Notes: generated by a model not told the origin, from the sequence alone. DNA of 64,000 nucleotides from Candidatus Oxydemutatoraceae bacterium (GCA_965220085.1 CBDCOZ010000003.1:608001-672000); one strand, 5' to 3'. Shown: positions 8,942 to 42,421, numbered from the stretch's first letter. A program made the numbers and translations.

Positions 8942-9170
8942 CGTGTGTGTCGGGCGGCCCGACGCAAACAGCGGATGGATAATGCCGGAAACATTGCGGA
9001 CTCCCGGCATCAACGCGGGATAAAAGCCACTATGGACGCCTGCCGCCTCAGCCGCTCCGTAGCCCCTGCGCTTGCGGCTGCGCCTTTTTCTTCAAGGCCC
9101 CCTGCAATAATGCGAGTAATCAGCGGCGGAGAAGGGGAGTATCATGGGGCGCACACAAAGGGGTGAAAAG

Positions 9171-9286
9171 GCGCTTGCAAATGATTGAACTTGTGATATA
9201 GTGCAACACTTATCGTATAACAGCCTTCGCGGGCACAAGATACAAAGGTATTTGCAAATGACTGACACTCTGTGGCATAGCGCAAC
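9171..9286 (+). promoter_or_regulatory. Two tandem sigma70-like promoter modules for FLEGPLR-family locus 1
   Basis: GCGC-TTGCAA(9175)-N16-TATAGT(9197), with TG before the -10; degenerate second copy TTGCAA(9252)...CATAGC; homologous to 18082-18250 and 42327-42358. Confidence 0.6.
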
Positions 9287-9453
9287 ATCAAACAATCCGC
9301 AAGCAACTGAGTGTTGTTTGCGTACACTAAGTAATTCACAAACAGTTAAATATTGTTTGTGCTCTCATATCGTTTGTGCTTCATTAAATGTTGCTTGTGT
9401 ACATATATCGTGCGGCTGTATTCACTAGGCATAGGCCATAAGGAGTAATAGAT

Positions 9454-12400
9454 ATGAATAGACAAGCTTTTAATACTGCCCCCCCCCTCCCCCCCCACCT
9501 AGCGTACACGCAGGCAGGGCAACGATGGCCCTGCGTAGCCTCATCTGGCTGCCAGTTGCGCTATGCGCTCAAATCTGGGCGGGCACTGATGCCGTCGCTC
9601 AGTCCAAACCGGAAGCCGGCATCGCCACCGTCATGGTGTCCATCAGGGCCACCGCCGACAGCCCATATGTATTCAAGCTGGCCGACTTCCCTTTCGAAGA
9701 TGCCGATGACGACGCATTGACCGCCGTAGAGATAAGGAGTGTGCCGGGCACTGGCACATTGCGGGTGGGGTCCGCCGCCGCCACGGTCGGCCAGACTGTG
9801 ATGCGCGCCAGCATAGTCTCAGGCTCCATCACCTATTATCCGTCGTCGGCACCTCGTGTCACCAGCTTTTTCTACCGAGTGTACGCTGGCGGCGAGTCTT
9901 CCGATAATTTGGGCACCGTCAACATCGTTTTGTTTGACCCGCCAAACTCCTCCCCCCACCGGCACCTTGGGCATAGCCGCCCGCATCGAGCCTGCCACCA
10001 CCTGGACCGAGGACTCGCGCATAACAGCCACCGTAGGCTCGGTCGCCGATGACGACGGCATAAACGCTGGCTCCACGTCCTGGAAGTGGCAGCAGGCCGC
10101 GCCGATCAACGACGCGGCACCCGCCGATGACAGCGCGAGCTGGAGCGACATACCTGGCGCGACCAACTTCTCTTTCACCCCCCTGCAAACCCATGTGGGC
10201 AACTATGTGCGCGCCTGCTACAGCTTCACCGACGAGTACCACATTCCCGCGACCTACACCATCTGCACCCTCAACAGGCTGGTGACCAATGTCAGCGATG
10301 CCCCCACCGGCAGCGATACCACCGTCAATGTGCCCCTTGGCGCCAGTTCCGCTTCCCCGCATGATTTTGACTTGAGCGACTTTCCCTTTTCCGATACCGA
10401 GGACGGCGATGCCTTCAACGGCATCCGTCTGGCCACCCTGCCATCTGCGGGCACTCTGGTGGTGACCAGCAATACCGACCTGACCATCGACCAGGGCACC
10501 AATCTCAGCTTGGCGCAACTGAGTGATCTGGCCTATTACCCCAGCGACGGCGCCACCGCCGGGACCAACCGCGACAGATTCACCTACAAAGTGACAGACA
10601 CCGGCAACGATGCCGCCACCGATGGCGCCATCGCCAACACCGCCGCCACCGCCGCCACGCTGACCATCAATCTGGTGGACGACCCGGCTACCGGCATGCC
10701 CGCGCTGGCCTACGCCAGCGGCATAACAGTCCCCACCGAGGACAGCCCCATAACCGCATCCCAAGGCACCATAGCCGATCCCAGCAACACCCCGCCCACC
10801 AGCATCGGCACCATCAACTGGCAATGGAGCCAGGCCGACAGTGACGGCGGCATCTACACCGACATATCCGCGGCCACCAATGCCGCTTTCACCCCCGGCG
10901 ATGCTCAGGTGGGCATGTTTTTGCAGGTCTGCGCATCGTTCACCGACAGCGACGGCGATAACGAGAGTCGCTGTCGGCAAATACCCACCGCCGTCGCCAA
11001 CATCAATGACCCTGCCGCCGGTGCGGTGGCCATCAGCACCGCCGACGGCGCCCTCAGCGGCGCGCCGGACGAGGATGCGGCCCTCACCGCCAGCGCGGCC
11101 GGCATAACCGACCCCGATGGCACCGCCAACATTGCCGGCAGCCTGCGATGGCATTGGCGCGAAGATGGCCGGGGCAACGGCGTATTCGCCGATATAGAGG
11201 GGGCCACCGGCGCCGCCTTCACCCCCTTGCAGGCGCAGGTGGGCAACGCCCTGCGGGTCTGCGCCAGTTTCACCGATGACAGAGGCAGCCGGGAAAATCT
11301 TTGCATCACCACCGAGCCGGTTGCCAACACCAACGATGCGCCGATGGCACAGCGCCGCAGAATCTCAGTGTCCGTCGCCGCCAATGCCAGCGCCCCCTAC
11401 GCATTCCGCCCTCAGGACTTTCCGTTCACCGATGACGATGACGACAACCTGGCCGGCATCATATTGAGAGACCTGCCCGGTGCGGGCACCATGGCTCTGG
11501 ATGGCACCGCCTTGACCGCCGTCCCCACAGAGACCATAACAGTGGCCCAACTGCAGGCTGGCACCCTCACATATTGGCCGGAGACGGGGCAGCAACCCAC
11601 CAGATTAGACACGTTGGATGCATCCTATAGCCTCTTCAGGGCCAGGGTGGTGGACGATGGCGACGGCCCGGGCGGCGATGTCGATGCCGACAAAACCAGC
11701 GACATAAGCGGTCTCCTCGCTCACATCCGCCTGGTGCAGGCGGAACAAGCCAAAGCCACTGGCGGGCCTCGGGTAAGTGTGCACAATGTTGGCGTGGCCG
11801 CCGTCTGCCCCGAGGGTAGCGAACTGCAGGTCCGCATCGATGGCATAGTTGAGCCCAACGGCATAGACGAGAGCACTGTGATGTGGCAATGGCAACAATC
11901 CGCCCGCGCCGACGGCGGCTTTGTCGACATAGCGGGCGCGACCGCCGCCACCCTCACCCTGACCCAGGCCCAGGTGGGAATGCACATACGCGCCTGCGCT
12001 ACCTTTATGGACCACCACCCCACAGCCCCGGCGCGGGAGAGTCTCTGTAGCTCCCCGGTGCGAACCAATAACGCGCCGAGGGCTCTGGACAGCGTGGCGC
12101 TCGTACCCACCGCGGCCACCGTAGCAGCGCCTTATGTGTTTAGGGCGAGCAACTTTCGCTTTGCCGATGCGGACATCGGCAGTGGTGCGGCCGGCGGCTC
12201 TCTGGCAAGTGTCACAATCACCGGCGCGCCAAACCGGGGTACCTTGCGCGCGGGGACGACGACCATCACCACAAGCAATGTGCCGCACGAGGTAAGCAAC
12301 ATCTCCACGCTCACCTACTATCAGGAGGATGGCGATGATGAGCCTATGCGAGACTATGCCCGATTCCGATTCACTGTCAGCGACGGCATAGAGAGCAGCG

Positions 12401-12480
12401 CCGCCGCCACGATGCGCATAGACTTGGGGGACAGCCTGCGCTTGCGCTTGCGCGTCTTCCTTGAGGGGCCGCTACGGTAG
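9454..12480 (+). pseudogene. FLEGPLR-family secreted modular protein, locus 1 (frameshifted, putative OFF state)
   Basis: Leader ATG 9454 is out of frame with the signal-peptide ORF at 9525; second frameshift at C6 9952-9957 into ORF 9856-12480; modules A-B-A-B-B-A-B-A; ends LRLRLRVFLEGPLR*. Confidence 0.75.
9479..9496 (+). repeat. Poly-C tract C9-T-C8 in the leader of locus 1
   Basis: Counted directly; lies between SD(9441)/ATG(9454) and the signal-peptide ATG(9525). Confidence 0.9.
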
Positions 12481-12599
12481 TGCGGGTACCCAACGACCAC
12501 ACTACGGCCTGAAACCTCAAGCGCTATGGCATAGCACAATATTTGTCTCAGGTGTCCGATATGTCATGGCCTCAAACAGTCATGGCGTCATACGGCGGA

Positions 12600-12627
12600 T
12601 TGACGCAAGCCATATTTTCCTTATAAT
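12600..12627 (+). promoter_or_regulatory. Putative sigma70 promoter of the rpsF operon
   Basis: TTGACG-N16-TATAAT, 45 nt upstream of the rpsF ATG. Confidence 0.65.
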
Positions 12628-12672
12628 GCTCCCCTTCTATGTTTACCGAAGCAAAGCGAAGCGCTCATTAAA

Positions 12673-13512
12673 ATGAGACATTATGAAATTGTATTTTTAG
12701 TGCATCCGGGGCAAACCGATCAGGTGCCGGAGATGATTAACCGCTACTGTGCGCTTGTCACAGACGGCGGCGGCAAAGTACACCGTCTGGAAAACTGGGG
12801 GTTGCGCAACTTGGCGTATCCGATCAGAAAGGAAGACAAAGCGCACTATGTCTTGATGAACATTGAATGCCTGCATGAGGCTTTGGACGAAATCAAGAAT
12901 TCCTTCCAGTTCAATGATGCGATTATCAGAGACATGATAGTCCGTTGTGACGAAGCGGTTACCGACGCGTCAACCATCATGAACGCCACGACTCGCGAAG
13001 CGGAAAAGGCGGCACAGGAAGCACAAGCCGCACAGGCAGAGCAAGCGGCACAGACAGGGCAAGCCGCACAGGCAGAACAAGCGGCACAGACAGGGCAAGC
13101 CGCACAGGCAGAGCAAGCGGCACAGGCAGAGCAAGCGGCACAGGCAGAGCAAGCGGCACAGGCAGAGCAAGCCGCACAGGCAGAGCAAGCCGCACAGGCA
13201 GAACAAGCCGCACAGGCAGAACAAGCCGCGCAGGGAACGCAAGCCGCACAGGCAGAGCAAGCCGCACAGGCAGAACAAGCCGCGCAGGCAGAGCAAGCCG
13301 CGCAGGCAGAGCAAGCGGCACAGGCAGAGCAAGCCGCACAGCCAGAACAAGCCGCGCAGGCAGAGCAAGCGGCACAGACAGAACAAGCCGCACAGGCAGA
13401 GCAAGCGGCACAGGCAGAGCAAGCGGCACAGGCAGAGCAAGCGGCACAGGCAGAACAAGCGGCACAGCCAGGGCAAGCCGCGCAGACAGAACCTACGGTA
13501 TCGGCGAAATGA
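12673..13512 (+). CDS. rpsF: 30S ribosomal protein S6 with a long C-terminal repeat tail
   Basis: [22 protein letters not shown] and AHYVLMN motifs; rpsF-rpsR-rplI order. Confidence 0.96.
13009..13494 (+). repeat. 27 x 18-bp coding tandem repeat (AAQxxQ)
   Basis: 162 aa of AAQAEQ-type units in the S6 tail. Confidence 0.95.
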
Positions 13513-13766
13513 TCAGTTCGGGCAAAAAAAGGCCGTCGCCAAACTACCGAAAGAGAGTGCAGAGACAATGCCGCTTTACGAAAGAGGGCATCACCCGCAT
13601 AGACTACAAGGACATTGATTTGCTCAAGGATTACATCACCGAAACAGGCAAGATTGTTTCCGGTCGGGTAACCGGCACCCGGGCAATTTATCAGCGTCAA
13701 TTGGCCGTCGCAATCAAACGCGCCCGTTATATCGCCTTGCTTCCGTATACCGATCGGCATCACTAA
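13509..13766 (+). CDS. rpsR: 30S ribosomal protein S18
   Basis: [14 protein letters not shown] and [19 protein letters not shown] motifs. Confidence 0.97.
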
Positions 13767-13862
13767 TCCGTATTCCCCCGCATATTCCCAAAGCGCGCGA
13801 CACACCCGCATATTCGGTTGCCGGGCGGCTGTCGGCGTTGCTGTCTCTTTGCTAGGCGAGAT

Positions 13863-14768
13863 ATGAAGAATATTGTCGTATCAATCACATCCGGCTACTC
13901 TCGCACAGTGTCGGCCATGGTTGTCTCCGCCTTTTTGTCGGGGCTGATTCCGCCGTTCGCATTGGTCAGCGGCGCGCTGCCGGCGTTGGTGACGCTGCGC
14001 TTTGGTTGGCGGCGCAGCATCAGCGTCGCAGTCGGCGCGCTGCTCGCCGTCACCCTCTTCATGCTTGCGGCAACACTGGTCGGCTGGCACATCGGATATG
14101 CGGCATTGCTGTGGATTCCTCTGACGCAATGGTTGCCGGCGATCTTCTTTGCGGAGATTCTCAGAAGGATGCGCTCGCTCGCGCACTTTATGTATGTGTT
14201 TGCGCTGGCGGGCGCGCTCTTGTTTTTTACCGTGCTCGCTTTCTTCCCCGGCATCGATGGTTATTGGCGAGAGGCATACGCCGCAATCGCTCCCATGTTG
14301 GAAAACAGCGGAGGGCTGCCGGCCGCCCAAGCGCCGCCCTACTTTTTTTCAATATTCACGGGGGTTCTCATATCTTCTTTTCTGATGATGTGGTCATTGA
14401 TGTTATTATTAGGCCGCTGGTGGCAATCATTGCTGGATTGTCCGGGCGGGTTTGGCGATGAATTCACCCGAATCTCAATAGACAAAAAATACGCTTTGGG
14501 AATCATCGCCTTGTTGACCGTCTGGCTGGCGGCAGAGACACCGATTGTGATGCAGTTATGCGTGATCATGGTCATCCCGGCATTGGTATTGCACGGAGTG
14601 GCGGTTTGGCATTTCCTGTTGGGTCGGTGTCAAAGCAGGATGGGTCACATACTGTTTTATGTTTCATTGATATTCGCTATGGTTGTCCCGTGGTTGATAT
14701 TGATATTGGTTCTGACAAGCATAGCAGAAAGTTTCGCGCGGCTACGCGAGAGGCTTTCCGAAGCATAG
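13863..14768 (+). CDS. Multi-pass membrane protein, DUF2232/YybS-like
   Basis: Highly hydrophobic; LLGRWWQSLL..PGGFGDEF motif; conserved position between rpsR and rplI. Confidence 0.75.
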   Translation: MKNIVVSITSGYSRTVSAMVVSAFLSGLIPPFALVSGALPALVTLRFGWRRSISVAVGALLAVTLFMLAATLVGWHIGYAALLWIPLTQWLPAIFFAEILRRMRSLAHFMYVFALAGALLFFTVLAFFPGIDGYWREAYAAIAPMLENSGGLPAAQAPPYFFSIFTGVLISSFLMMWSLMLLLGRWWQSLLDCPGGFGDEFTRISIDKKYALGIIALLTVWLAAETPIVMQLCVIMVIPALVLHGVAVWHFLLGRCQSRMGHILFYVSLIFAMVVPWLILILVLTSIAESFARLRERLSEA

Positions 14769-14779
14769 GAGGGAAAAAA

Positions 14780-15304
14780 ATGGAAGTCATGCTTCTGACA
14801 AAAATCGAGAATCTCGGAGAATTGGGCGATCTCGTCGACGTAAAGCCGGGCTATGCCCGCAATTACCTGTTGCCGTATGGCAAAGCGCAGGAAGCCACAC
14901 CCGAGAATATTGCCGAACTTGAGGCGCGCAAAGCCGTGCTGAGAGCGGAGTTGGAGAAGGAGAGAGAAGAGGCGCGCGCCAAAGCGGAAAAAATGGGCGG
15001 CAACGCCATAGAGTTTCTGGTCGGCAATGTCAACGAAGAAGGCGAGTTGGCCGGTTCAATCGGCACGACCGATATCGTGACAAAAGTTCGCGAAACATGC
15101 GGCATTGAAATAGAAAGAAGTCAGGTGCGCTTATCGAGCGGCGTACTGCGCAAGGTCGGCGAATACAGTGTGACCGTGCACTTACACGCGGATGTGGATG
15201 CGCAGGTCACGGTCAATATTGTTGACAAAGACGCGGACAAGAAAAAGAGGGCAGACAGCGACAAGGATAGCGACGACGGCGATGGCGGCAGTTCCCCCGA
15301 TTGA
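14780..15304 (+). CDS. rplI: 50S ribosomal protein L9
   Basis: MEVMLL..IENLG.LGDLVDVKPGYARNYLLP; AGGAGG SD. Confidence 0.96.
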   Translation: MEVMLLTKIENLGELGDLVDVKPGYARNYLLPYGKAQEATPENIAELEARKAVLRAELEKEREEARAKAEKMGGNAIEFLVGNVNEEGELAGSIGTTDIVTKVRETCGIEIERSQVRLSSGVLRKVGEYSVTVHLHADVDAQVTVNIVDKDADKKKRADSDKDSDDGDGGSSPD

Positions 15305-16724
15305 ATACGGCAATTCCGAAGTCGCCTCGCTGCGTACCCCGCCCCATTCCATAGAGGCCGAGCAGGCGGTCATCGGCGGCTTGTTGCTGGACAGCGTGGC
15401 GTGGGAAAGAATTGCCGGCATTCTGACGAAGCAAGACTTTTATGTCGCCAATCACGGCTTGCTGTTTGAGGCGATTGAGAAACTGATCGAAAACAACCGC
15501 CCCTGCGATGTGATCACGGTTGCCGAGTCGCTAAAAGGCAAGATACCCGGCGACGAAGCCCAGTTTATGCTCGATCTCGCCACCCTCGCCAAAGACACCC
15601 CGAGCGCCGCCAACATAAGCGCGTATGCGCAGATCGTGCACCGGGATTCCATGCGGCGCAAGCTGCTCGGCGTTGCGACAAAAATTATTGAGGACGCCTA
15701 TAACCCGCCCGTAGACGGCGGCGAGAATCTGGTCGATGTCGCCGAACAGCAGATTTTCAACCTGAACGAACACGGCCGCAAGACGGTTGACTTTCAAACG
15801 CTGAATGAACTTAGCCGCCTGGTGCACGAGCAAACCGTGAAACGTTCTCAGCAGGGCGGAGAAATCGTCGGGCTGGCGACGGGTTTCCCCGCGATAGACG
15901 AGCAAACCAACGGTTTGCAACAGGGAGATTTAATCATCATTGCCGGTCGGCCTTCCATGGGCAAGACCAGTTTGGCTTTGAACATCGCCGAACATGTCGC
16001 GCTCAAAGAGGAAAAGCCGGTTGCGATTTTCAGTCTGGAAATGCCCGCCAACCAGATTGTGACCCGCTTCTTTTCTTCGTACGGGAGAATCAATCAAGGG
16101 CGCATTCGCACCGGCAACTTGAACGATGACGAATGGGCGAGAATGACGCAGACGCACAAGGACTTTTGGGATAAGCCGCTGTATATTGACGACAGTTCCG
16201 CCCTGACCCCGCTGGATGTGCGAGCGCGTGTGCGGCGTTTGAAGCGCGAGGTGAATGATATGGCGCTCGTCGTAATCGACTACCTGCAACTGATGACGAC
16301 AGAAGGCAATACCGAGAACCGCGCGGTGGAGATTTCAAAGATTTCTCGCGCATTGAAAGCGCTCGCCAAGGAGGTCAATGTGCCGGTCATCGCGCTGTCC
16401 CAGCTCAACCGCAATCCGGAGACCCGCCAGAATCAGAAACCCCAGTTATCCGATCTGCGCGAATCGGGCGCGATCGAGCAAGACGCCGATTTGGTCGCGA
16501 TGATTTACCGCGAGGGCGCCGATTCTATGGCGGAGGGCAATCAGCAGAGCGACAAGGTGTCCATCGTCGATGTGGTCAAGCATCGCAACGGCCCGACCTT
16601 TGTCCGCAAACTGGTTTTTCAAGGTCAGTTCACAAGATTCAGGGAGTATGCGCCGGATGAGATGTTGTCGGAAGTGCCGCCATCGGCTGTGCACAACACT
16701 TATGTGACCGAATTTGACGATTGA
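15282..16724 (+). CDS. dnaB: Replicative DNA helicase
   Basis: PPHSIEAEQ, GRPSMGKT, IDYLQL and SDLRESGAIEQDAD motifs; no intein seen. Confidence 0.97.
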   Translation: MAAVPPIEYGNSEVASLRTPPHSIEAEQAVIGGLLLDSVAWERIAGILTKQDFYVANHGLLFEAIEKLIENNRPCDVITVAESLKGKIPGDEAQFMLDLATLAKDTPSAANISAYAQIVHRDSMRRKLLGVATKIIEDAYNPPVDGGENLVDVAEQQIFNLNEHGRKTVDFQTLNELSRLVHEQTVKRSQQGGEIVGLATGFPAIDEQTNGLQQGDLIIIAGRPSMGKTSLALNIAEHVALKEEKPVAIFSLEMPANQIVTRFFSSYGRINQGRIRTGNLNDDEWARMTQTHKDFWDKPLYIDDSSALTPLDVRARVRRLKREVNDMALVVIDYLQLMTTEGNTENRAVEISKISRALKALAKEVNVPVIALSQLNRNPETRQNQKPQLSDLRESGAIEQDADLVAMIYREGADSMAEGNQQSDKVSIVDVVKHRNGPTFVRKLVFQGQFTRFREYAPDEMLSEVPPSAVHNTYVTEFDD

Positions 16725-16825
16725 TTGTTTATATTGTTCTCCCCCCGGAACCTCTCCCCGATACCTTCGCTATGCCTTGAGCAATACTGCGGCGGGCTAA
16801 GAGACATTCTCAGCCGCCTCGTCTT

Positions 16826-17920: not shown

Positions 17921-18081
17921 CTCAAACTGTTGTAAAATGGCGACATTTGATGCTATTTTCACGCATAGTAGCGGCAGGGGGCGGAGTAATACCGCTGTGC
18001 CGCCAATCCCCGCCTACATAATCGTGCGAGCAGGCGCACCGGAGAAGGGATATTATGGGGGGCGCGCAAAGGGAGTAAAAA

Positions 18082-18292
18082 GCGCTTGCAAATGACTTGT
18101 GCTATGGTATAGTGCGACAGAATCCCATACGGGAGGAGAATAACTTGCAAATGACTTGTGCTATGGTATAGTGCGATACTCGTTGTAAATTTCATTCGCT
18201 AAACGCAGGAGAAAAGGTATTTGCAAATGACTCACACTTTGTGATATAGCGCAACACTCATCGTACGACTGCATTCGCCAAACAGGAGGCAT
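18082..18292 (+). promoter_or_regulatory. Three tandem promoter+UTR+SD units for FLEGPLR-family locus 2
   Basis: TTGCAA at 18086, 18145 and 18221, each followed by TATAGT/TATAGC; each unit ends in a GGAG-type SD; the first two units share an exact run of about 33 bp. Confidence 0.65.
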
Positions 18293-18340
18293 ATGCACCA
18301 GGATAACATATTATTAATATACAAATATTTAATTATGCTA

Positions 18341-18362
18341 CCCCCCCCCCCCCCTCCCCCCC
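18341..18362 (+). repeat. Poly-C tract C14-T-C7 in the leader of locus 2
   Basis: Counted directly; between AGGAGG(18284)/ATG(18293) and ATG(18391). Confidence 0.9.
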
Positions 18363-18390
18363 GCTCCCCAGTGCGCATCAGCGGACAACG

Positions 18391-21249
18391 ATGGTCCGGC
18401 TTAGCCTCTGGCTGCCGGCCCTGCTCGCCTTGTGCCTGACATTGGGCGCAACCCGGGCCGACGCTCAAGGCAGTAGCAAAGATGCCGCAACCACGATAAG
18501 ATTGGACAGAACCGTATCAGAAGTCCATCTGCTGAGGGGAGGTGTCCATTGGTGGAAGTTTACGCTGACTTCGACCTCATTGGTCACTATTGAAGCCACA
18601 GGCGAAACTGACACTCAGGGAAAACTGGAAGACAGCGCGGGCGCAACATTGGACATTGATGATGATGGCGGCGCAGGCGCTAACTTCAAGATTGTCAGGG
18701 TTCTTGGCGCGGGCGCTTATTACGTAAGAGTCGCCGGTTACAGCTCTGCAACAACAGGAAATTACCGTCCGAGCGTCACAACGGCCGCACTCTCAACCGC
18801 TGCCGCCATAACATTGGGCACCGCCGTATCAAAGACCCTCGCCGCGGGGGGTGTTGATTACTACAGGCTTGCGCTGACTTCGCGTTCAGCGGTTACTGTT
18901 CAAACCACAGGCTCAACCGACGTCATAGGACTGTTGCAAGACAGTGCGGGCGCGCCGTTGGAAGCCAATGATGACAGCGGCGCAGGCGATAATTTCAGGA
19001 TTGACAGAACTCTTGATGCAGGCGCTTATTACGTAAGAGTCTCCGGTTTCAACCCCACAACAACGGGAAGTTACAGTTTGAGCGTCACCCGGGATGCCGC
19101 CCCCACCAACAGCAGAGGAACAGCGACTGACATAACATTGGGCAGAACCGAATCAAGAAATCTGCCGAAGGGGGGTGTCCATTGGTGGAAGTTTACGCTG
19201 CTTGCGACCTCATTGGTCACTATTAACACAAACAAAATTAACACACAGGGAAAACTGGAAGACAGCGCGGGCAACACATTGGACACCGATGCTGATAGCG
19301 CAACCGGCTTTTCCGGCGCTTTCAAGATTGTCAGAGTTCTTGGCGCCGGCGCTTATTACATAAGAGTTTCCGGTTTCAGCTCCGAAGTAACAGGAAATTA
19401 CGATCTGACCGTCACAGCGGCCGCAACCACAATCGCAACCGCAATAACACTGGGCGGCGACGCCGTATCAAAGACCCTCGCCGCGGGGGGATTTGATTAC
19501 TACAGGTTTGCGCTGACTTCGACCTTGCCGGTTGTCATTGAAACCACAGGCTCAATCGATGTCAGAGGACTGCTGCAAGACAGCGCGGGCGCGCGTATTG
19601 AAGCCAATGATGATAGCGGCGCAGGCGATAACTTCAGGATTGACAGAGTTCTTGATGCGGGCGCTTATTACGTAAGAGTCGCCGGTTTCAACCCTGTGGT
19701 AGCGGGAGATTACAGTCTGAGCGTCACACATGTCCCGAACTCCGCCCCGACCGGCGCCCCGATTGCCAATGACGGGAGTGATCCGACCGAGGACGCCACC
19801 ACCGTGGTCGAGGACACCACCGTATATGTCTTCCAGGGCACACTCAACGATGACGACGGCACAGACCTCAGAGCCGCCTCCCTGAGCTGGCAGCAGGCTG
19901 CGCCGGTCAATAACGCGGCGCCCGCCGATGACAGCGAGGGCTGGAGCGACATACCCGGCTGGAGCGACCTGTCCACCGCGGACATCATTCGTTTCATCCC
20001 TCTGCAAGCCCAGGTGGGCAAATATGTGCGCGCCTGCCTCACTTTCACCGACGAGCACTTCGTCCCCGAGACCTCCACCGTCTGCACCGCCAGCAAGTTG
20101 GTGACCAATGTCAGCGATGCGCCCGCCGGCCGCGACACCACTGTGGATGTGCCCGACACCGCCACCGCCGCCAATCCGCACGACTTTGACATAAACGACT
20201 TTCCGATTGACGACGAGGATGGCGACACCATCAACGGCATACGCCTGGTCAGCCTGCCGACGACGGGCACTCTGGCGGTGGCGGGCGAGACCCTGACCCT
20301 GACCGCCGGCGCCACCCTGACTCTGGCGCAACTGGAGGCGCTGGCCTATTACCCCGACAGCGGCTCCTCCCCCATGGACGGCCACGACAGCTTCGACTAT
20401 CGCATCATAGATGACGGTAGCGGCGCCGCCAACATATCCGAGGATGCCTACACCCTCACGATCAATCTGTTCGCCAACCCACAGATTGCCGCCACCGGGG
20501 GACCAAGCATCACCCCGGCCACCAGCGCCCAGATCCTCACCCACGCCGAAGACACCGAGTTGACCGCCAACACCGTCGGCATAATGGAGCCCAATGGAAT
20601 AGACCAGAGCACACTGCGATGGCAGTGGCAGTCCGCCCCGGCTCCGGTCAGCGGCGCTCCGACGGAAAGCGCCTACATTGATATAGCCACGGCGACCGCC
20701 GCCGCCTTCACCCCGTTGCAGGCTCATGTGGGGCTGTACATCCGCGTCTGCGTCTCTTTTATGGACGAGTACGTACCCGCCGCCGAATATGGCCCGCTGT
20801 GTTCCGCCGCCGCTCGGGTGCGCAATGTCAACGATGCGCCGGTGGCGCAAAACCGCACGATAAATGTGTCGGCGGATGCCACCATGAGCGAGCCCTACAC
20901 ATTCGCCGCCGCCGACTTTTCCTTTGCCGATGGGGACCATGACAACTTGGCCAGTGTGGAGATTGCCAGCCTGCCGAGCGCCGGCACCCTGCAAATAAAC
21001 GGCGCTGACGCCCCTGTCGGTGGGATCGTGCCCGCCGCCAACATCGGTACCATCACCTACTGGCCGGCGGCTGAGCAGGATGCCCAGACCGGTTACGCCA
21101 CCTTCGACTTCAAGGTGACCGACGATGGCAACGATGGCAACGGCAACAAAACTTCCGCCACCGCCGCCATCACCATCAATCTGGCGGAGCGCCTGCCGCA
21201 GCACCTGCGCTTGCGGCTACGCCTATTCCTTGAAGGCCCGTTGCGGTAG
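18391..21249 (+). CDS. FLEGPLR-family secreted modular protein, locus 2 (4 PPC-like domains plus B-A-B-A modules); leader from 18293 is out of frame
   Basis: Signal peptide MVRLSLWLPALLALCLTLGATRADA; four repeats of TG.TD..G.L.DSAG.....DD.GAG.NF.I.R.L.AGAYYVRV; ends LRLRLRLFLEGPLR*. Confidence 0.85.
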   Translation: MVRLSLWLPALLALCLTLGATRADAQGSSKDAATTIRLDRTVSEVHLLRGGVHWWKFTLTSTSLVTIEATGETDTQGKLEDSAGATLDIDDDGGAGANFKIVRVLGAGAYYVRVAGYSSATTGNYRPSVTTAALSTAAAITLGTAVSKTLAAGGVDYYRLALTSRSAVTVQTTGSTDVIGLLQDSAGAPLEANDDSGAGDNFRIDRTLDAGAYYVRVSGFNPTTTGSYSLSVTRDAAPTNSRGTATDITLGRTESRNLPKGGVHWWKFTLLATSLVTINTNKINTQGKLEDSAGNTLDTDADSATGFSGAFKIVRVLGAGAYYIRVSGFSSEVTGNYDLTVTAAATTIATAITLGGDAVSKTLAAGGFDYYRFALTSTLPVVIETTGSIDVRGLLQDSAGARIEANDDSGAGDNFRIDRVLDAGAYYVRVAGFNPVVAGDYSLSVTHVPNSAPTGAPIANDGSDPTEDATTVVEDTTVYVFQGTLNDDDGTDLRAASLSWQQAAPVNNAAPADDSEGWSDIPGWSDLSTADIIRFIPLQAQVGKYVRACLTFTDEHFVPETSTVCTASKLVTNVSDAPAGRDTTVDVPDTATAANPHDFDINDFPIDDEDGDTINGIRLVSLPTTGTLAVAGETLTLTAGATLTLAQLEALAYYPDSGSSPMDGHDSFDYRIIDDGSGAANISEDAYTLTINLFANPQIAATGGPSITPATSAQILTHAEDTELTANTVGIMEPNGIDQSTLRWQWQSAPAPVSGAPTESAYIDIATATAAAFTPLQAHVGLYIRVCVSFMDEYVPAAEYGPLCSAAARVRNVNDAPVAQNRTINVSADATMSEPYTFAAADFSFADGDHDNLASVEIASLPSAGTLQINGADAPVGGIVPAANIGTITYWPAAEQDAQTGYATFDFKVTDDGNDGNGNKTSATAAITINLAERLPQHLRLRLRLFLEGPLR

Positions 21250-21280
21250 CGGGCGCCACCGCAACGGGCGTTACCCCCCT

Positions 21281-21457
21281 AACTTCGCACCGGCTGCCGC
21301 ACAACTGGGCAGGTATGTGCGTGCCTGCGTTTCTTTCAAGGATCAGTTTTCCTCGTCCGCATCGGAAGGTCCGCTGTGTAGCGCCGGCATTCTGGTGACA
21401 CAGTTGCCTGAGGTGCGCTTGCGGTTGCGCATCTTCCTTGAAGGCCCGCTACGGCAG
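21281..21457 (+). pseudogene. Orphan 3' fragment of another FLEGPLR-family gene
   Basis: Reads FAPAAAQLGRYVRACVSFKDQ...EGPLCSA...VRLRLRIFLEGPLR, then CAG where the paralogs have TAG; no start codon. Confidence 0.8.
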
Positions 21458-32969: not shown

Positions 32970-35106
<2,137 letters not shown>

Positions 35107-35210
35107 CCGGGCAGTAGCGACGCACATGAGGGAGAAATTATATAGCAAGCCGAGACAAACTGATTAGCGATATAATAAGCCTTCGTTTAATCGTATTTTC
35201 CGAGAACTTA

Positions 35211-36011: not shown

Positions 36012-36147
36012 AGGCAGTGGTGCTTGTTGCCGTCAAAGGAACGCCGCAACCCGCCGCTTTAGCCCGCTTGTGCCCGTTTTCTTGCAACATGCCGCCGCCG
36101 CCCGCAGAAACCGCCCGTTGCGCATTGCATGACGGAAGGCGGGCGCT

Positions 36148-37014
36148 GTGAACTTTCGCGCGACCGTCATTTCCTGCTTGCGCGCGCATATCGTCTTGGA
36201 AGACGGGCGGCGCAACCTGTATCGCGCCCGCCGTTCCAAGAACTCGGCGCTGGCGTGCGGCGACAAAGTGCTCTGTTCTGACGACGGCGAAGCGTGCCGA
36301 ATCATAGAGCAACTGCCGCGGCGAACACATTTGAGCAGACAGCGCCGGCAAGGGGGGCGACAGGACATCGCCGCGAATATTACCGCAGTCATCGTCGTGA
36401 CCGACTTGGCCGCCGGCATCAACACCTTCTTGACAGACAGTTATCTCGTCGCTTGTGTTGCCATCGGGGTCAAACCGATTCTGGTATTTAACAAGATCGA
36501 CATCGCGCCGGTCGCTCCCGCGCACGAGATAATATTTTCCGGTTATCGCGCCGCAGGCTGCCGCATCTTTGCCATCAGCGCAAAAACCGGCGCGCAAACG
36601 GATGTGTTGGCGCAATCGCTGTGCGACGAAACCGTCATCATGCTCGGCTTGTCGGGCGCCGGCAAAACCTCTCTGGCCAACTGCCTGATTCCCGGCCTCA
36701 ATGCCAGAGTCGCCGATGTTTCCGTCGCCGCCGGCGAAGGCAGGCATACGACCAGCGCGACCACTCTGTATCATCTGGCAAGCGGCGGGGCGCTGATAGA
36801 CTCGCCCGGAGTGCGCTCCTACGCCTGCCCCGTATCGTCGTTTCGCGAAGTGCAGGATGCATACTCCGAGTTCCGTCGTTATGCGCAAGACTGCGCCTTC
36901 GCCGATTGCCGCCACGACCGCGAGCCGCAGTGCGCGGTGCGCGCCGCGGTCAATAGCGGATTACTGGCGCCGTTTCGCTATCGGCACTATCTGGAGTTGA
37001 TTCAAAACATTTAA
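36148..37014 (+). CDS. rsgA: Ribosome small subunit-dependent GTPase A
   Basis: NKID, GLSGAGKTS, GRHTT, DSPG and C.F.DC.H..EP.C motifs; start uncertain. Confidence 0.93.
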   Translation: MNFRATVISCLRAHIVLEDGRRNLYRARRSKNSALACGDKVLCSDDGEACRIIEQLPRRTHLSRQRRQGGRQDIAANITAVIVVTDLAAGINTFLTDSYLVACVAIGVKPILVFNKIDIAPVAPAHEIIFSGYRAAGCRIFAISAKTGAQTDVLAQSLCDETVIMLGLSGAGKTSLANCLIPGLNARVADVSVAAGEGRHTTSATTLYHLASGGALIDSPGVRSYACPVSSFREVQDAYSEFRRYAQDCAFADCRHDREPQCAVRAAVNSGLLAPFRYRHYLELIQNI

Positions 37015-37057
37015 GCGGCGCTTCGCGCCGCCGCGGCGCTTCGCGCCGCCGCGGCGC
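37015..37057. repeat. Duplicated 18-bp GC hairpin between convergent genes
   Basis: GCGGCGC-TTC-GCGCCGC-C twice, plus a partial third copy. Confidence 0.75.
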
Positions 37058-37075
37058 CGCCCGCCGACGGGTTTG

Positions 37076-37909
37076 CTACTCGTCAAAGCGGTAGTTAAAG
37101 CGCTCTATCGTGCGCGGGAAGTATTGCTCAATCCGCTGTCTTGATTGCGGCGTATACAGCGGTCGGTAGTCCCTTACCGCCGCATCCCGCACCTTTGACT
37201 TGACCCTTTTCAGCGCGCCCAAATCCGGCAAGCCGATGCGTTCGCAGACCTGTTTAAACTCCGGCTCAAGGTTCTCGTAAGCGATATATTGGTCAAGAAC
37301 GGGTTCGCCCTCGTGGAAGTAAAAATCCTCCGACATTTCCAATATCATGGAATACACATCGCTCATCAGAGTCGCCTCCATCGCTTCCCGATGCCTTTCC
37401 GCCTTCGCTTTTTTGAGTATCTGAGAAACAGAGCGTCGTTCTTTCAGGAAGTGCCAGATGCGCGATGCGTAAAACACGCTCCACGGCTGGCGCAGCCACA
37501 AGCCCGCATAGTGTTTTGCGTTGTCCATGTTTTCATCGTACGGATTGACCCCTTTCATCTTGAAGAAATAGAACGACGCAAACCAATCCCACGGGTTTCT
37601 GACCACGGTGAACTTGAAATAACTATTCCATGTCTCCTCGCCGACTATGCGGATGATTTCGGAGATGGGCAGATGGCCTCTCATGGCGCAAAACACCGGA
37701 GACACCCGCTTGATCGCCGCGCCCCGATTGCGCAGCGCGGGGAAAGGCGTCTCGTCCCACGCCGGGTTATATTCCAGTTGCTTGCCGTCGTGGACGATGA
37801 GGTCATCGTCGTCGCCGAGCGCCCCGCTGAGTTTGAGCATAATGCTGGAGCCGGCGATTTTTCTTTGCCGCACAAAGATAAAGCGGTGTTTGTGGGAGAT
37901 GATAGTCAT
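37076..37909 (-). CDS. Sulfotransferase family 2 protein
   Basis: FIFVRQRKIAGSSI (5'-PSB-like), FTVVRNPWD..S.Y (3'-PB-like) and YENL motifs. Confidence 0.85.
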   Translation of the reverse strand: MTIISHKHRFIFVRQRKIAGSSIMLKLSGALGDDDDLIVHDGKQLEYNPAWDETPFPALRNRGAAIKRVSPVFCAMRGHLPISEIIRIVGEETWNSYFKFTVVRNPWDWFASFYFFKMKGVNPYDENMDNAKHYAGLWLRQPWSVFYASRIWHFLKERRSVSQILKKAKAERHREAMEATLMSDVYSMILEMSEDFYFHEGEPVLDQYIAYENLEPEFKQVCERIGLPDLGALKRVKSKVRDAAVRDYRPLYTPQSRQRIEQYFPRTIERFNYRFDE

Positions 37910-37912
37910 GTC

Positions 37913-38506
37913 TCAATAGGCTTGCCGGCTGTCAAACGCTCTGGACAGCGTGGACATATCTATGTACTCCAGTTCGCCGCCGACCGGCACCCCCTGCGCG
38001 ATCTGGCTGACCGCAACCCCGCGCTTGTGCGCCAGTTCGCGTATCACGTGGGCGGTGACATCCCCCTCGACCGTCGTGCTAGTCGCCAGAATCAACTCCG
38101 CGATCGTTTCTTGCGCGAGGATATCTTCCAACGAGTCAAGACCGATCTCTTGCGGCCCGATGTCATCCAGCGGCGACAGCTTGCCGTGCAAGACAAAGTA
38201 CAGGCCGCGATAATTGCCGATGCCCTCTATCGCCGCCAGATCGGCCGGGCTTTCCACGACGCAGCGCAACGACTTATCGCGTTCTTCGTCCGCGCAGATA
38301 GCGCACAACTCCTCTTCGGCAAACATGCGGCAACTCTTGCAGTTGCCGATTTTCTCCATCGCGGTGACAAGGTTTTCGCCGAGTTGTTCGCCGTTTTCGC
38401 GATTGCGCTCCAGCAGATAGTACGCATACCGCTGCGCGGTTTTTCTGCCGACGCCCGGCAAACAGGCAAAAGCCGCAATCAATTTTTCCAGCAAATCATC
38501 CCGCAT
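37913..38506 (-). CDS. recR: Recombination protein RecR
   Basis: LPGVG.KTAQR, C4 zinc finger, VVE.PAD and G.P.GGELEY motifs. Confidence 0.96.
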   Translation of the reverse strand: MRDDLLEKLIAAFACLPGVGRKTAQRYAYYLLERNRENGEQLGENLVTAMEKIGNCKSCRMFAEEELCAICADEERDKSLRCVVESPADLAAIEGIGNYRGLYFVLHGKLSPLDDIGPQEIGLDSLEDILAQETIAELILATSTTVEGDVTAHVIRELAHKRGVAVSQIAQGVPVGGELEYIDMSTLSRAFDSRQAY

Positions 38507-38509
38507 GGC

Positions 38510-40216
38510 CTAGTTTTCTGTCTTCGTCGGGCGCACCGAATCGGGCAGTGTGCTCGCATTAAATTCCTTTTTGATCAAGGCAACATCCGGGTCTTGGTCA
38601 AACGCGGCTTGCGCCTGATGTTGTTGTCTGGCTGCGTTCTGTTTTTGCAGTTGTGCCGGCGATGTCGTCTCGTCGGCGACCGTGAATTGCAAGTCTACCT
38701 CGGCGCCGACCGCCCGATTCAAGGCCTCGCGGATGGCTTGTCGGTTCTTGTCGGAGCAGAGTTCCGCGGTACTCTCATCCATCTGCAGTCGCGCCGCGGT
38801 CGGCGCATCGGCTATCAGCAACGCCTGATAACAGAGCCCGCGCAAGTGCCCGCTGAGCGCCATCTGTTCTATCAGTTTGCCCCAGCCTTCGGCGCCGTCG
38901 TAGTCGCGCAAGTCCGCGGCGGGTGTTGCGCCGCTTGTCGGCGCATCGGCGCTCGCCGTACCCGCTTCCGCTGCGGTTGCTTCCGCCTTCGGCGGCGTTG
39001 CTTGCGGCGCGGTTGTTTCCGCCTTCGGCGTCGTCGCTTGCGGCGCGGTTGTTTCCGCCTTCGGCGTCGTCGCTTGCCGCGGCTTGGCGGCGGGTGTGGC
39101 AGGGGCGGCGGCCTGTGCCGCCGGCGCGGATTGCAAGGGAATAAAGTTCATAATCCGCAAAAAGGTCATCTCAATGGCATTTTTATCGTCTCCGACCAAC
39201 GGCATATCTCGCTTGCCGCTCAACGCGGTTTGATAGGCGAGTTGTATGTCCTCCGCCGCCATCGCTTCGGCCAGAGCCTTGATATCGGCGGCGGCAAAAT
39301 GGGGCGACGGTTCGGCATCGGGCAAGGTCTGATGCAGCGCGATGCGGTGCAGCAGGTCGATAAAGTCCTTCAGCACGCCGCTAAAATCGGCCGCATTGCG
39401 GTAAAGTTCGTCGACGATTTGCAGCATGCCGGCGGCATCGCCTTGCGTTATGCGCTGCAATATCCGCACCGTGCTTTCGCGGTCGCTGAGTCCGAGCATC
39501 TCATACACGGCATCGGTCTTTAACGCGCCGTTGCCATAGGCGATGGCCTGATCGAGCAGGCTCAAAGCATCCCGCATACTGCCTTCGGCGGCGATGACGA
39601 TTTTGTCCGGCGCGCTGTCTTCGCAGGCGATGTCCTCGTCCTCTAGCAACTTGCGCAGATATTCCAGGATGGTCTGCTTGGGCAACCGCGTCAGGTTCAG
39701 TTGCAAGCAACGCGACAACACCGTCGCCGGTATCTTTTGCGGGTTGGTGGTTGCGAACAAGAATTTGATATGGTCGGGCGGCTCCTCAAGGGTCTTCAGC
39801 AGAGCGTTGAAACTGCTGACAGACAGCATATGCACTTCGTCGATCAGGTAGATTTTATAGCGCCCGCGGCTCGGCGCGTATTGCACATTGTCGAGTATCT
39901 CGCGCATATTCTCCACCCCGGTGCGGGAGGCGGCGTCTACTTCAATCAGATCGACGAAACGCCCGTCGTCTATCTCGCGACACGCGGCGCATTTGCCGCA
40001 CGGGTTTGCGGTCGGCCCGGTTTCGCAGTTTAAGCACCGCGCCAAGATCCGCGCGATGGTTGTTTTGCCGACGCCGCGGGTGCCGGCAAACAAGTATGCG
40101 TGATGCATGCGCGACAACTCAATGGCGTTGCTCAGGGTGCGGATCACATGTTCCTGCCCCGCCACTTCGGCAAAACTTCGCGGTCGCCATTTGCGCGCCA
40201 GTACTTTATAGCTCAC
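38510..40216 (-). CDS. dnaX: DNA polymerase III subunit gamma/tau
   Basis: YKVLARKWRP, GTRGVGKTT, IDEVHML, NALLKTLEEPP and GSMRDALS motifs. Confidence 0.97.
   Translation of the reverse strand: MSYKVLARKWRPRSFAEVAGQEHVIRTLSNAIELSRMHHAYLFAGTRGVGKTTIARILARCLNCETGPTANPCGKCAACREIDDGRFVDLIEVDAASRTGVENMREILDNVQYAPSRGRYKIYLIDEVHMLSVSSFNALLKTLEEPPDHIKFLFATTNPQKIPATVLSRCLQLNLTRLPKQTILEYLRKLLEDEDIACEDSAPDKIVIAAEGSMRDALSLLDQAIAYGNGALKTDAVYEMLGLSDRESTVRILQRITQGDAAGMLQIVDELYRNAADFSGVLKDFIDLLHRIALHQTLPDAEPSPHFAAADIKALAEAMAAEDIQLAYQTALSGKRDMPLVGDDKNAIEMTFLRIMNFIPLQSAPAAQAAAPATPAAKPRQATTPKAETTAPQATTPKAETTAPQATPPKAEATAAEAGTASADAPTSGATPAADLRDYDGAEGWGKLIEQMALSGHLRGLCYQALLIADAPTAARLQMDESTAELCSDKNRQAIREALNRAVGAEVDLQFTVADETTSPAQLQKQNAARQQHQAQAAFDQDPDVALIKKEFNASTLPDSVRPTKTEN
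38973..39077 (-). repeat. About 3 x 36-bp coding repeat (QATTPKAETTAP) in the DnaX linker
   Basis: Period-36 repeat seen in both DNA and protein. Confidence 0.85.
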
Positions 40217-40594
40217 TGTTATCGTTTCAATTTGTTTTCGGGTTTCTTGCGCTAAGCGCGCCGCATCCTCGGCGCTGCCGGCGACCTGTGCGCCAATCGG
40301 GTTTGCAACGACCGGTCGCAGAGGCGCGCCCGCAAGAATCTGTCTATTATACTCAGCCTTTTATTTGCTTGCCAAAACGCGCTTATCATCGGGCAACCGA
40401 ATCATCGGCGCCCGGTGCGACTGTCAAGGTTCTGCACTGACGCTTACTGACGCTTGGGGAATTCCATGCCGCAACGATGCAAGCGGCAAAGGCGATGTCG
40501 CATCTATCTCACGCACGGCGATAGCGGACATCCTTCGTGTGCCGACTCCCGCGAGGAGCGTGTCGGCGGGCGCGAGTCTTGCGAGGAATCGCTC

Positions 40595-40966
40595 GCGCTA
40601 TCGCAACGGGCATTCAAGAAGGAGTGTGTCGTGCGAGCGTTGCGGGTTGCTTGCGCTATCGCAACGGGCCTTCAAGAAGGAGTGTGTCGTGCGAGTGTTG
40701 CGGGTTGCTTGCGTTATCGCAACGGGCCTTCAAGAAGGAGTGTGTCGTGCGAGCGTTGCGGGTTGCTTGCGCTATCGCAACGGGCATTCAAGAAGGAGTG
40801 TCGTGCGAGCGTTGCGGGTTGCTTGCGCTATCGCAACGGGCCTTCAAGAAGGAGTGTGTCGTGCGAGCGTTGCGGGTTGCTTGCGCTATCGCAACGGGCC
40901 TTCAAGAAGGAGTGTGTCGTGCGAGCGTTGCGGGTTGCTTGCGCTATCGCAACGGGCCTTCAAGAA
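40595..40966 (-). repeat. 58-bp tandem array amplifying the LEGPLR* end of locus 3 plus about 35 nt of 3' flank
   Basis: Stop-codon position recurs at 40598, 40656, 40714, 40772, 40828, 40886 and 40944 (the real stop); one unit is 56 bp. Confidence 0.93.
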
Positions 40967-42209
40967 AGAGGCGCAAGCGCAAGCTCAGGTGCTCCACCAG
41001 ATGTATGTTCATCGTGCGGGCTTCGGTGTTGCCGGTGCCATCATAGTTCACCATGTAGGTGAAACTGGCGAAGTTGGGGGCGGCGGCGGAGTCTTCCGGG
41101 GGATAATAGATGAGCTCTCCATTTCGTATTGAGTCCCCGTTTACAGTGAGGTTGTCTGCAATGGCTACTGATCCTCCCAGGAGAAATGTGCCCCTGCCCG
41201 ATGCTATGGTGGTGATTACGGGCACGCTTTTCAGAGCGCCGGTGGGATCGTTCGGGAACATAAAGTCGGATGGCTTGAACCTGTAGGGCGCGTCTGCGTC
41301 GGCGGTAATCGGCACACTCACCGAATTGGCTCTGGCGATGATGGCGCCTGTGGTGCACAGCGTGGGGGCATCGGCGTCGCCGCCCTCTTCGGTGCCTATG
41401 CCGTCGGTGAAACGGAGACAAACGCGGATGTATTGGCCGATATGTTCCCGCCCCGGTGTGAAGGCGTCGGCGGTGGCTCCGGCGATGTTTTCGTATGTGC
41501 CAGCCTGGGTGGCGGACTGTTGCCATTGCCAACTGCGTCTGTGGGTGGGGATGCCGTTGGGCTCGGTGATGCCGGCAGTGCCGGCAATCAGTTCCGCATC
41601 CTCGTTGTAGGCGACGCCCGATGCCGCCGTGACCGTCGGTGCGCCGGTGGCCGCCGTATTTGTGGACGGCACCAGATCTACGGTGATGGTGGCGGCGGGC
41701 CCTTCGCTGTTTGCCGTCCAGGTAAAGGTGGTATAGCCCGCCATGGGCATGTCAGCGCTACGGGGAAAATACTTTACGGTGCCAATGTCAGCAAGGGGTA
41801 TATTCGCAATCGTTCGGCCTACAACAGTGACACCGCGCGTCAACTCAAACTGTCCGTCGCTTTGGAGCACCCCCAACGAAGTCGAGGTTATGCTCCCTGT
41901 GGCATTGGCGGGGGCGGTCTCAAAGTGTACGCTGGTCAAGGTATTGGCATTGCCAAACGGAAAATCACCCGCCGAGAAAGTATAACTGAGGCCCGCCGGC
42001 ACATAGATGGTGTTGTTCTGCGCCACAGGCGCGCTTTGCGCTTGGGCTTGCGCACAGGCAACAAACAGCGCTGGCAACATCAGCAATCGGAGGCTGCGCC
42101 GTATCATCGTTGCCCGCCGATAGGGGGGGGGGGGGGGGGGGGGGGCTATATAAACAGTGGCGGAAGCGCCGGGGGTGCCAGGCTGGTGACGAATTATTTT
42201 GATGTTCAT
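40944..42209 (-). CDS. FLEGPLR-family secreted modular protein, locus 3 (A-B-A modules); leader in frame, putative ON state
   Basis: GGAG SD plus ATG 42209; MNIK...YIAPPPPPPPYRRATM, then signal peptide IRRSLRLLMLPALFVACAQAQA; ends LSLRLRLFLEGPLR*. Confidence 0.85.
   Translation of the reverse strand: MNIKIIRHQPGTPGASATVYIAPPPPPPPYRRATMIRRSLRLLMLPALFVACAQAQAQSAPVAQNNTIYVPAGLSYTFSAGDFPFGNANTLTSVHFETAPANATGSITSTSLGVLQSDGQFELTRGVTVVGRTIANIPLADIGTVKYFPRSADMPMAGYTTFTWTANSEGPAATITVDLVPSTNTAATGAPTVTAASGVAYNEDAELIAGTAGITEPNGIPTHRRSWQWQQSATQAGTYENIAGATADAFTPGREHIGQYIRVCLRFTDGIGTEEGGDADAPTLCTTGAIIARANSVSVPITADADAPYRFKPSDFMFPNDPTGALKSVPVITTIASGRGTFLLGGSVAIADNLTVNGDSIRNGELIYYPPEDSAAAPNFASFTYMVNYDGTGNTEARTMNIHLVEHLSLRLRLFLEGPLR
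42123..42145 (-). repeat. Uninterrupted C23 tract (G23 on +) in the leader of locus 3
   Basis: Counted directly; encodes A-P7. Confidence 0.9.
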
Positions 42210-42330
42210 GATAAATCTCCGTTGATTAGCAGACGAAATATGCAACTATGCAACCGATTGCCTGCCCATGATAAATCTCCGTTGGTTAGCAGATGAAATA
42301 TGCGACATGCAACCGATTGCCCGCCTATGA
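42207..42330 (-). repeat. 60-bp tandem duplication of the 5' UTR/SD of locus 3
   Basis: CATGATAAATCTCCGTTG.TTAGCAGA.GAAATATGC at 42207 and 42267 (+ strand). Confidence 0.85.
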
Positions 42331-42358
42331 TACACACTACAAAATAATTTGCAAGCGC
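42327..42358 (-). promoter_or_regulatory. Sigma70-like promoter of locus 3
   Basis: GCGC-TTGCAA-N16-TATCAT on the minus strand; same GCGCTTGCAAAT 12-mer as loci 1 and 2. Confidence 0.6.
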
Positions 42359-42421
42359 CTGTATGATGCCATGACATATTGGAAACTTTGGGCAAATATT
42401 GTGAATAGAGGAGTATCGGAC

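Follow-up and report, generated by a model that had tools for sequence, protein, structure and literature searches.

Three loci with a common design

The stretch of DNA analysed here, 64,000 nucleotides long and referred to as the window, is C3:608001-672000 (contig C3) of the genome of a Candidatus Oxydemutatoraceae bacterium (G000; 2.49 Mb in 3 contigs, 55.8% G+C), a marine symbiont-type, host-associated organism and not a pathogen. Among proteobacterial-type housekeeping genes (rpsF, dnaB, alr, sppA, rluC, rne, cysS, secD), the window carries three genes, here called loci 1 to 3, for secreted modular proteins that end in the same C-terminal peptide, FLEGPLR, which we call the tail. Each gene is laid out as a promoter-like module, a Shine-Dalgarno sequence with an ATG, a short leader, a poly-C tract, a Sec signal peptide, a string of beta-sandwich modules and the tail. 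Their features are listed below in window coordinates.

9171..9202, + strand: locus 1 promoter-like module, GCGCTTGCAAAT ... TATAGT, with GCGCTTGCAAAT itself at 9171-9182; scan match TTGCAA-16-TATAGT, TG before the second hexamer
9440..9478, + strand: locus 1 Shine-Dalgarno sequence AAGGAG, ATG at 9454, leader codons MNRQAFNT
9479..9496, + strand: locus 1 poly-C tract, C9TC8; leader out of frame with the signal peptide
9525..12480, + strand: locus 1 body; signal peptide from 9525, cadherin-like modules, tail codons 12436-12477, stop codon 12478-12480
18082..18172, + strand: locus 2 promoter-like modules, two tandem TTGCAA-16-TATAGT copies; GCGCTTGCAAAT at 18082-18093
18284..18340, + strand: locus 2 Shine-Dalgarno sequence AGGAGG, ATG at 18293, leader
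18341..18362, + strand: locus 2 poly-C tract, C14TC7; out of frame
18391..21249, + strand: locus 2 gene, 952 amino acids from the signal-peptide ATG; four PPC domains, then cadherin-like modules; tail codons 21205-21246
21270..21457, + strand: relic of the 3' end of another family gene, after locus 2; encodes the tail ...VRLRLRIFLEGPLR, then CAG where the stop codon is expected
42327..42358, - strand: locus 3 promoter-like module; GCGCTTGCAAAT at 42358-42347
42146..42332, - strand: locus 3 5' region; start ATG 42209-42207, then leader
42123..42145, - strand: locus 3 poly-C tract, C23; in frame, read as poly-proline
40944..42107, - strand: locus 3 signal peptide, three beta-sandwich domains and tail; tail codons 40988-40947, stop codon 40946-40944
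40591..40970, - strand: tandem array of a 58-bp unit, 6.6 copies, starting within the last 27 nucleotides of locus 3

A reading of this DNA made from the sequence alone (the sequence-only reading) had proposed this design, and its promoter module, Shine-Dalgarno sequence and ATG, poly-C tract, signal peptide, modules and tail were all found in place at the three loci. The signal peptides follow R-[AT]-T-M and start at 9525, 18391 and 42107, and all three genes end in ...LRLR[VL]FLEGPLR and a stop codon. A direct coordinate count agreed with its claim that two loci are out of frame at the tract (loci 1 and 2) and one is in frame (locus 3). The modules that it had called beta-sandwich-like gave Pfam matches to PPC (four) and Cadherin_4 in locus 2 and to Cadherin_3 in locus 1, and an AlphaFold2 model of locus 3, made with 29 paralogues as input, consists of three beta-sandwich domains with a mean predicted local distance difference test (pLDDT) score of 80.9. 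Foldseek searches with this model returned generic immunoglobulin (Ig), FN3 and cadherin arrays only. The public gene call for locus 3, P0001 (421 amino acids), begins at the ATG at 42209. The body of locus 1 contains a second frameshift, between about 9856 and 10052, and a C6 run lies there at 9952-9957, which could be a second slippage site, the mark of a dead gene or a consensus error.

The promoter-like sites, TTGCAA-16-TATAGT or TATCAT, are built by the GCGCTTGCAAAT module. Loci 1 and 3 have one each, and locus 2 has two on the gene strand (three on both strands, versus 0.8 expected from shuffles). Upstream of locus 3, a 60-bp unit with a Shine-Dalgarno sequence and an ATG is present in 2.1 copies (42207-42332), and the upstream regions of loci 1 and 2 likewise hold repeated promoter-like units. 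At the other end of the gene, the 58-bp array copies the gene end of locus 3, including the stop codon, head to tail; gene-end repeats also follow other family genes, with periods of about 58, 120, 156 and 168 nucleotides, as measured from tail positions. In the relic after locus 2, the frame stays open past the CAG and joins that of a 2Fe-2S ferredoxin-like gene.

A family of about 190 genes

A six-frame scan of the genome found 218 FLEGPLR tails, 213 of them directly before a stop codon; the tail pattern gave 214 matches in the genome and none when read backwards. Among the open frames that end in the tail, 189 are at least 150 amino acids long and 29 are tail fragments of less than 150. Measured from stop to stop, the tail frames total 165,606 amino acids, or 19.9% of the genome, and the largest has 15,193. 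Loci 1 to 3 thus have some 190 family members in all, which encode Sec-exported, modular, adhesin-like proteins with cadherin-like, PPC and other beta-sandwich domains.

The repertoire of Sec-dependent adhesin-like proteins that the sequence-only reading had suggested is borne out, and the family it had seen in three loci is real, but its scale had been missed. Two further generalizations hold in the window but not across the family. The members of the window do sit singly among housekeeping genes, but family-wide there are 84 loci, of which 43 are singletons and others are arrays of up to 12 genes. The promoter module, common to the three loci, is not universal, as TTGCAAAT occurs within -300 to +500 of the frame start in only 37 of the 189 family genes.

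Poly-C tracts in the coding leader

The genome contains 90 poly-C tracts of 9-29 nucleotides. Directly downstream of 82 of them is an intact frame of 161-979 codons that ends in the exact tail, and 88 of the 90 lie in family-like genes, six of the other eight tracts being in genes that are broken elsewhere or have a variant tail. In all 82 genes the tract occupies the same position in the leader. The leader type of locus 1, M-[NK]-x-Q-x-F-N-T, is also found 5' of many other family tracts, and the leader end TAAYAYYD precedes 32 tracts; frames such as stop-IDKFLILPPP or stop-YPPPP are the +1 and +2 readings of a leader MNRQIFNT-P(n). As in a contingency locus, the repeat stands where its length determines the reading frame of the gene. 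The lengths are evenly spread modulo 3 (30/29/31), and the frames are mixed genome-wide as they are in the window: with the nearest ATG within 35 nucleotides taken as the start, approximately 16 of the 66 genes that have such an ATG are in frame and the other 50 are not; 16 more genes have no ATG at that distance.

It is unlikely, in our view, that the tracts are not switches at all and that the out-of-frame genes are decaying pseudogenes or their frames homopolymer assembly errors. Long homopolymers are error-prone in every sequencing chemistry, and such an explanation would account for the 50 of 66 genes out of frame, the extra frameshift in locus 1, the 29 short tail fragments and the relic after locus 2. 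It does not sit well, however, with 82 tracts standing before intact frames with the exact tail, with a common tract position in the leader, with the concentration of 88 of the 90 tracts in family-like genes or with the uniform distribution of lengths modulo 3. Out-of-frame copies have also kept their downstream frames open over hundreds of codons, as one would expect of genes that are silenced reversibly and not of genes in decay.

Three pairs of paralogues have flanks at least 90% identical, and tract length differs in one of them (15 versus 18). A Logan contig spans 9349-10218 and is identical to the assembly, Logan contigs being probably from the same sample as the assembly; a T>C change at 18355 is present in some contigs, where the locus is not assignable, poly-C words being common to several loci. 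Hi-C reads at the tracts consist only of long C runs, which we took as instrument artefacts. Loss of mismatch repair was considered as the cause of the tracts and rejected, as MutS and MutL are both encoded in the genome.

The sequence-only reading had placed the tract inside the coding leader. An alternative is that translation starts at an ATG after the tract, which would then have no relevant effect on frame and might tune transcription or coupling to an upstream open reading frame, or act through poly-proline as a dependence on elongation factor P (EF-P). Such an ATG, placed before the hydrophobic core of the signal peptide, is present in 12 of the 82 tract genes, all three window loci included, and many tracts have an AT-rich, TTTAAT-like hexamer just 5' of them. 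In 65 of the 82 genes, on the other hand, there is no ATG, GTG or TTG between tract and core (by our own heuristic for the core, which looks at most 21 codons past the tract), indicating that the tract is coding; by eye, the ATGs that follow the tract in the window loci have no good Shine-Dalgarno sequence. Members of the family that have no tract point the same way, with leaders that read into the signal peptide without an internal Met. Together, the tract-less members and the 65 genes without a later start require initiation upstream of the tract family-wide, and we regard a downstream start as improbable.

Passengers related to those of autotransporters

Residues 52-405 of locus 3 are colinear with the autotransporter P0074 (40% identity, E = 9e-57) up to the end of the last domain. 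Beyond the alignment locus 3 has the tail, where P0074 runs on for about 530 residues. At C3:835513-836031 lies a relic frame that matches the C-termini of 29 public proteins with 53-74% identity; the precomputed domains of 28 of these proteins include the autotransporter barrel PF03797. Of five of these proteins that were read, four have the same passenger modules and the fifth is a barrel alone; one of the five has a short proline run in its N-terminal leader. The relic is out of frame and is not itself recognised by Pfam, its identity resting on the match to the 29 proteins. No PF03797 match was obtained in loci 1-3 or anywhere else in the genome, although control genomes do match, and none was found in five relatives that carry the tail. 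The passengers are homologous to classical autotransporters of other uncultured bacteria and descend from passengers of that type.

Distribution of the tail

The first scans for the tail required the final Arg codon and so speak for this R form only. They gave 214 copies in this genome and none in 40 relatives, four single matches species-wide (about the chance number, by a hand estimate) and six single matches in Joint Genome Institute (JGI) metagenomes. A profile of 40 tails was then run against 1.84 billion representative proteins, giving 80 hits with 59 new identifiers: 54 from this genome, two of low complexity and three foreign proteins ending ...FLEGPLQ. Copies of this Q form number 34, 12, 12 and 9 in four genomes of a sister genus represented by five, and two in a single genome of another genus, so that five of 18 other genomes of the same family have it. 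That the tail is a lineage-wide tag, Q-ending in related genera, was missed by the sequence-only reading, as was the autotransporter origin of the family. No tail turned up in the 34 genomes from the order's remaining three families, nor, when any last residue was allowed, in a class-wide sample of 400 other genomes, 399 of them outside the bacterium's family.

The tail at the ten Q-form loci that were read is [IV]R[LVI]R[VI]KVFLEGPLQ, and in most (8/10) the frame exceeds the 507 residues fetched; across genera, the Q form closes giant adhesin-like proteins. The genomes with the Q form have only one or two C tracts of at least 12 nucleotides each, none with the leader-plus-tract pattern. On this comparison, the tail studied here is this genome's version of a tag that related genera also have, with Q as its last residue. 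A first search for related loci with locus 3 as query gave no match, and a word-based search with the tail region returned only proteins of this genome among its ten candidates. No NCBIfam or Pfam model matched the tail. Papers on sponge symbionts and phase variation yielded nothing relevant, and the strings FLEGPLR, FLEGPLQ, VFLEGPL and FLEGPL were found in no paper (supplementary files not covered), in keeping with the earlier impression that the system had not been described.

The tail as a peptide

The genome consensus of the tail is LRLRL[LVI]FLEGPLR, 14 residues, which may also be written [LI]R-LRL-[RK]-[LVI]-FLEGPL-R. It follows at least five unrelated kinds of sequence, and near misses number 13, versus 218 exact copies. 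At positions that were not used to pick the 218 tails, Arg is found at -9 in all 218 (codons CGC 175, CGT 31, CGG 12), Leu at -10 in 216 and Arg at -11 in 215. The stop codons that follow are TAG (134), TAA (51) and TGA (28), and related genera have the same tail residues with different codons. Since the residues are fixed while synonymous codons vary and all three stops are used, selection acts on the tail as a peptide, and acts strongly. In the model of locus 3, the last 14 residues form a disordered extension beyond the last domain (pLDDT about 47-50).

A peptide at a free C-terminus (213 of 218) might be a tag for periplasmic quality control, retention or degradation that is read by a PDZ protease, and the PDZ proteins of the genome, an ordinary set, would provide readers (two DegP-like proteins, a Ctp-like protein and RseP). 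This explanation is improbable, however, as it would commit about 20% of the genome to proteins destined for retention or destruction, while the same passengers are exported to the surface by barrels in other bacteria and the tag is kept across genera on giant adhesin-like proteins.

Less probable still is that what matters in the tail-coding sequence is a repeated DNA or RNA element (a recombination site, a repetitive extragenic palindromic (REP)-like repeat or a terminator) with the peptide incidental: although gene ends are tandemly repeated after locus 3 and other members and conservation extends one or two codons past the stop (CGC GAG is common), variation falls mostly at third codon positions, the codons differ between genera, loci 1 and 2 have no terminator-like site, and an element at the stop codon was rejected on a fold test of 213 copies, in which no RNA structure around the stop was enriched (mean z = -0.15).

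A proposed mechanism

The reading towards which we lean slightly is that of a switchable family of Sec-exported adhesin-like proteins in which the barrel has been replaced by a tail that addresses a shared partner. Going by the anatomy of the genes, translation would start at the ATG preceded by the Shine-Dalgarno sequence and pass through a short conserved leader and the poly-C tract, the latter read as poly-proline, on the way to the core of the signal peptide. Slipped-strand gain or loss of Cs would put each gene in or out of frame independently, and changes by three nucleotides would alter only the cleaved signal peptide. The cell would then have a coat that switches at random and in many combinations. 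Once a protein has been exported by Sec, its flexible tail would be recognised by one shared partner that replaces the lost barrel and whose job may be passage across the outer membrane or anchoring on it, so that a barrel of about 300 residues would have given way in this genome to a C-terminal peptide of 14. As to lineage, autotransporter-type passengers and poly-C leaders may have been put behind the lineage's own tail before the family expanded. The most likely role of the tail is to address proteins to a shared export or anchoring partner.

As a candidate route, the complete type II secretion system of this genome comes to mind first, though nothing links it to the tail. Its genes (gspC, D, A-like, B, E, F, J, K and L) lie at C3:452-465 kb, and GspC has a weak PDZ-like end. 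A complex prediction for GspC residues 60-283 with the last domain and tail of locus 3 scored 0.00, which is 'no answer' and neither for nor against binding. The genome encodes one Omp85 protein. Searches for TpsB and Slam gave no match, but the control genomes were also unmatched, so that they are uninformative.

Several observations count against the proposed reading. Raw Hi-C reads have a depth of about zero off the tracts, leaving tract heterogeneity unsupported at the level of reads; consensus lengths of homopolymers of 13-29 nucleotides may be wrong, which makes the frame counts approximate; the second frameshift of locus 1 means that some copies are probably dead; and with an ATG just before the signal peptide in all three window loci, internal initiation is possible there. 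On the side of the tail, three proteins carry the motif internally, just after the signal peptide and followed by GGS, so that a free C-terminus is not strictly required. No partner emerged from the gene neighbours of all family genes, where the only recurrent non-family genes encode transposases, coiled-coil proteins and methyltransferases. GspC is present in 18 of 18 same-family genomes with or without the tail, and the motif-bearing serine-protease-like protein, one of the three just mentioned, does not co-occur with the tail: its homologues are found in tail-less as well as tail-bearing genomes and it is missing from the tail-bearing G002.

The three proteins with an internal motif (C1:23868-25292, C1:36358-38001 and C3:1171425-1173515) share a near-identical N-terminal module of signal peptide, about 20 residues, tail motif and GGS. 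Two go on with PPC repeats and the third with a serine-protease-like motif recognised by eye; this domain gave no sequence match in Pfam or PDB. Its homologues are common in the bacterial family, also inside giant proteins. A second protease-like copy, at C3:1160953-1162380, is 73% identical from residue 69, and the N-terminal module with the tail motif is outside the match.

A bolder form of the proposal, which we hold tentatively and to which we would give somewhat less than an even chance, is that an autotransporter family has traded its cis barrel for a FLEGPL[RQ]-COOH address peptide that would send about 190 passengers into one shared outer-membrane export or anchoring machine, a new sorting route limited so far to one family of symbiont-type proteobacteria and coupled to about 85 poly-C switches. 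Overall, the observation of a switchable-looking family with a common tail is confirmed, and the interpretation put on it by the sequence-only reading is partly supported.

Two other features of the window may be recorded. Ribosomal protein S6 (12673-13512; domain at residues 1-93) has a C-terminal extension of about 165 residues of (AAQAEQ)n, encoded by an 18-bp repeat of 26.6 copies at 13012-13490. A DNA methyltransferase-like gene at 42422-43561 (- strand) adjoins locus 3 and belongs to a group of three, all beside family genes.

Comparison with known systems

In Neisseria, opa, pilC and the phase-variable autotransporters NalP and MspA have repeats or poly-G/C tracts in the region coding for the signal peptide. 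The genes described here resemble them in having a hypermutable repeat between start codon and signal-peptide core, in comprising many dispersed paralogues with their own tracts and mixed frames, and in that a length change that keeps the frame leaves the mature protein unaltered. They differ in tract length (9-29 nucleotides here, versus 8-14 there) and in number, with 82-88 tracts in one family of one 2.5-Mb genome; switching is here predicted from sequence. For scale, one study of N. meningitidis predicts phase variation in 115 genes, which are of many kinds and of which 26 were confirmed (PMC5084427). The poly-C leaders would be one of the largest known contingency-locus sets in a single family, found in a symbiont and not in a pathogen, and would bear on the ways in which symbionts respond to recognition by the host or to pressure from phages. 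About 85 independent switches, if real, could yield an astronomically diverse surface coat.

The Mycoplasma Vlp variable lipoproteins have a promoter tract, conserved 5' cassettes and independent on/off switching. The present family would be, like them, a multigene surface family with conserved 5' cassettes and homopolymer control, but Vlp proteins are lipoproteins governed by a promoter tract, whereas here the tract belongs to the coding sequence and the feature conserved at the end is a C-terminal peptide.

Adhesins of the type I (RTX-type) secretion pathway have no N-terminal Sec signal and carry a C-terminal signal that is read by an ABC transporter. The present proteins differ from them in having Sec-type signal peptides, in loci 1-3 and across the family.

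Short C-terminal sorting tags mark other large families, among them the C-terminal domain (CTD) of type IX secretion cargo, PEP-CTERM with exosortase, GlyGly-CTERM with rhombosortase and LPXTG with sortase. The tail is like them a short, lineage-restricted signature on tens to hundreds of otherwise unrelated Sec-exported proteins per genome. Unlike proteins with LPXTG, PEP-CTERM or GlyGly-CTERM, those described here end at the motif (213 of 218), with no transmembrane helix and basic cluster, and no sortase-like partner was found; and unlike the folded CTD of 70-100 residues of type IX cargo, the tail has 14 residues and is modelled as disordered. If it is a sorting signal, it would mark an undescribed route for large folded proteins onto or out of the Gram-negative cell, with about 190 natural cargoes.

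The closest comparison is with type Va autotransporters, with which the family shares an N-terminal Sec signal with an extended leader, homologous and colinear passenger modules (40% identity) and one barrel relic. It differs in that neither family nor genome has the 12-stranded PF03797 barrel, a 14-residue tail standing in place of last domain, linker and barrel. Such an exchange, 14 residues for a barrel of 300, would amount to a natural experiment that shows what an autotransporter needs its barrel for. Poly-C or poly-G leaders on genes for secreted proteins are already known; what this analysis adds is the scale of the family, the proof that selection acts on the tail as a peptide, the Q-form relatives and the putative replacement of a barrel by the tail.

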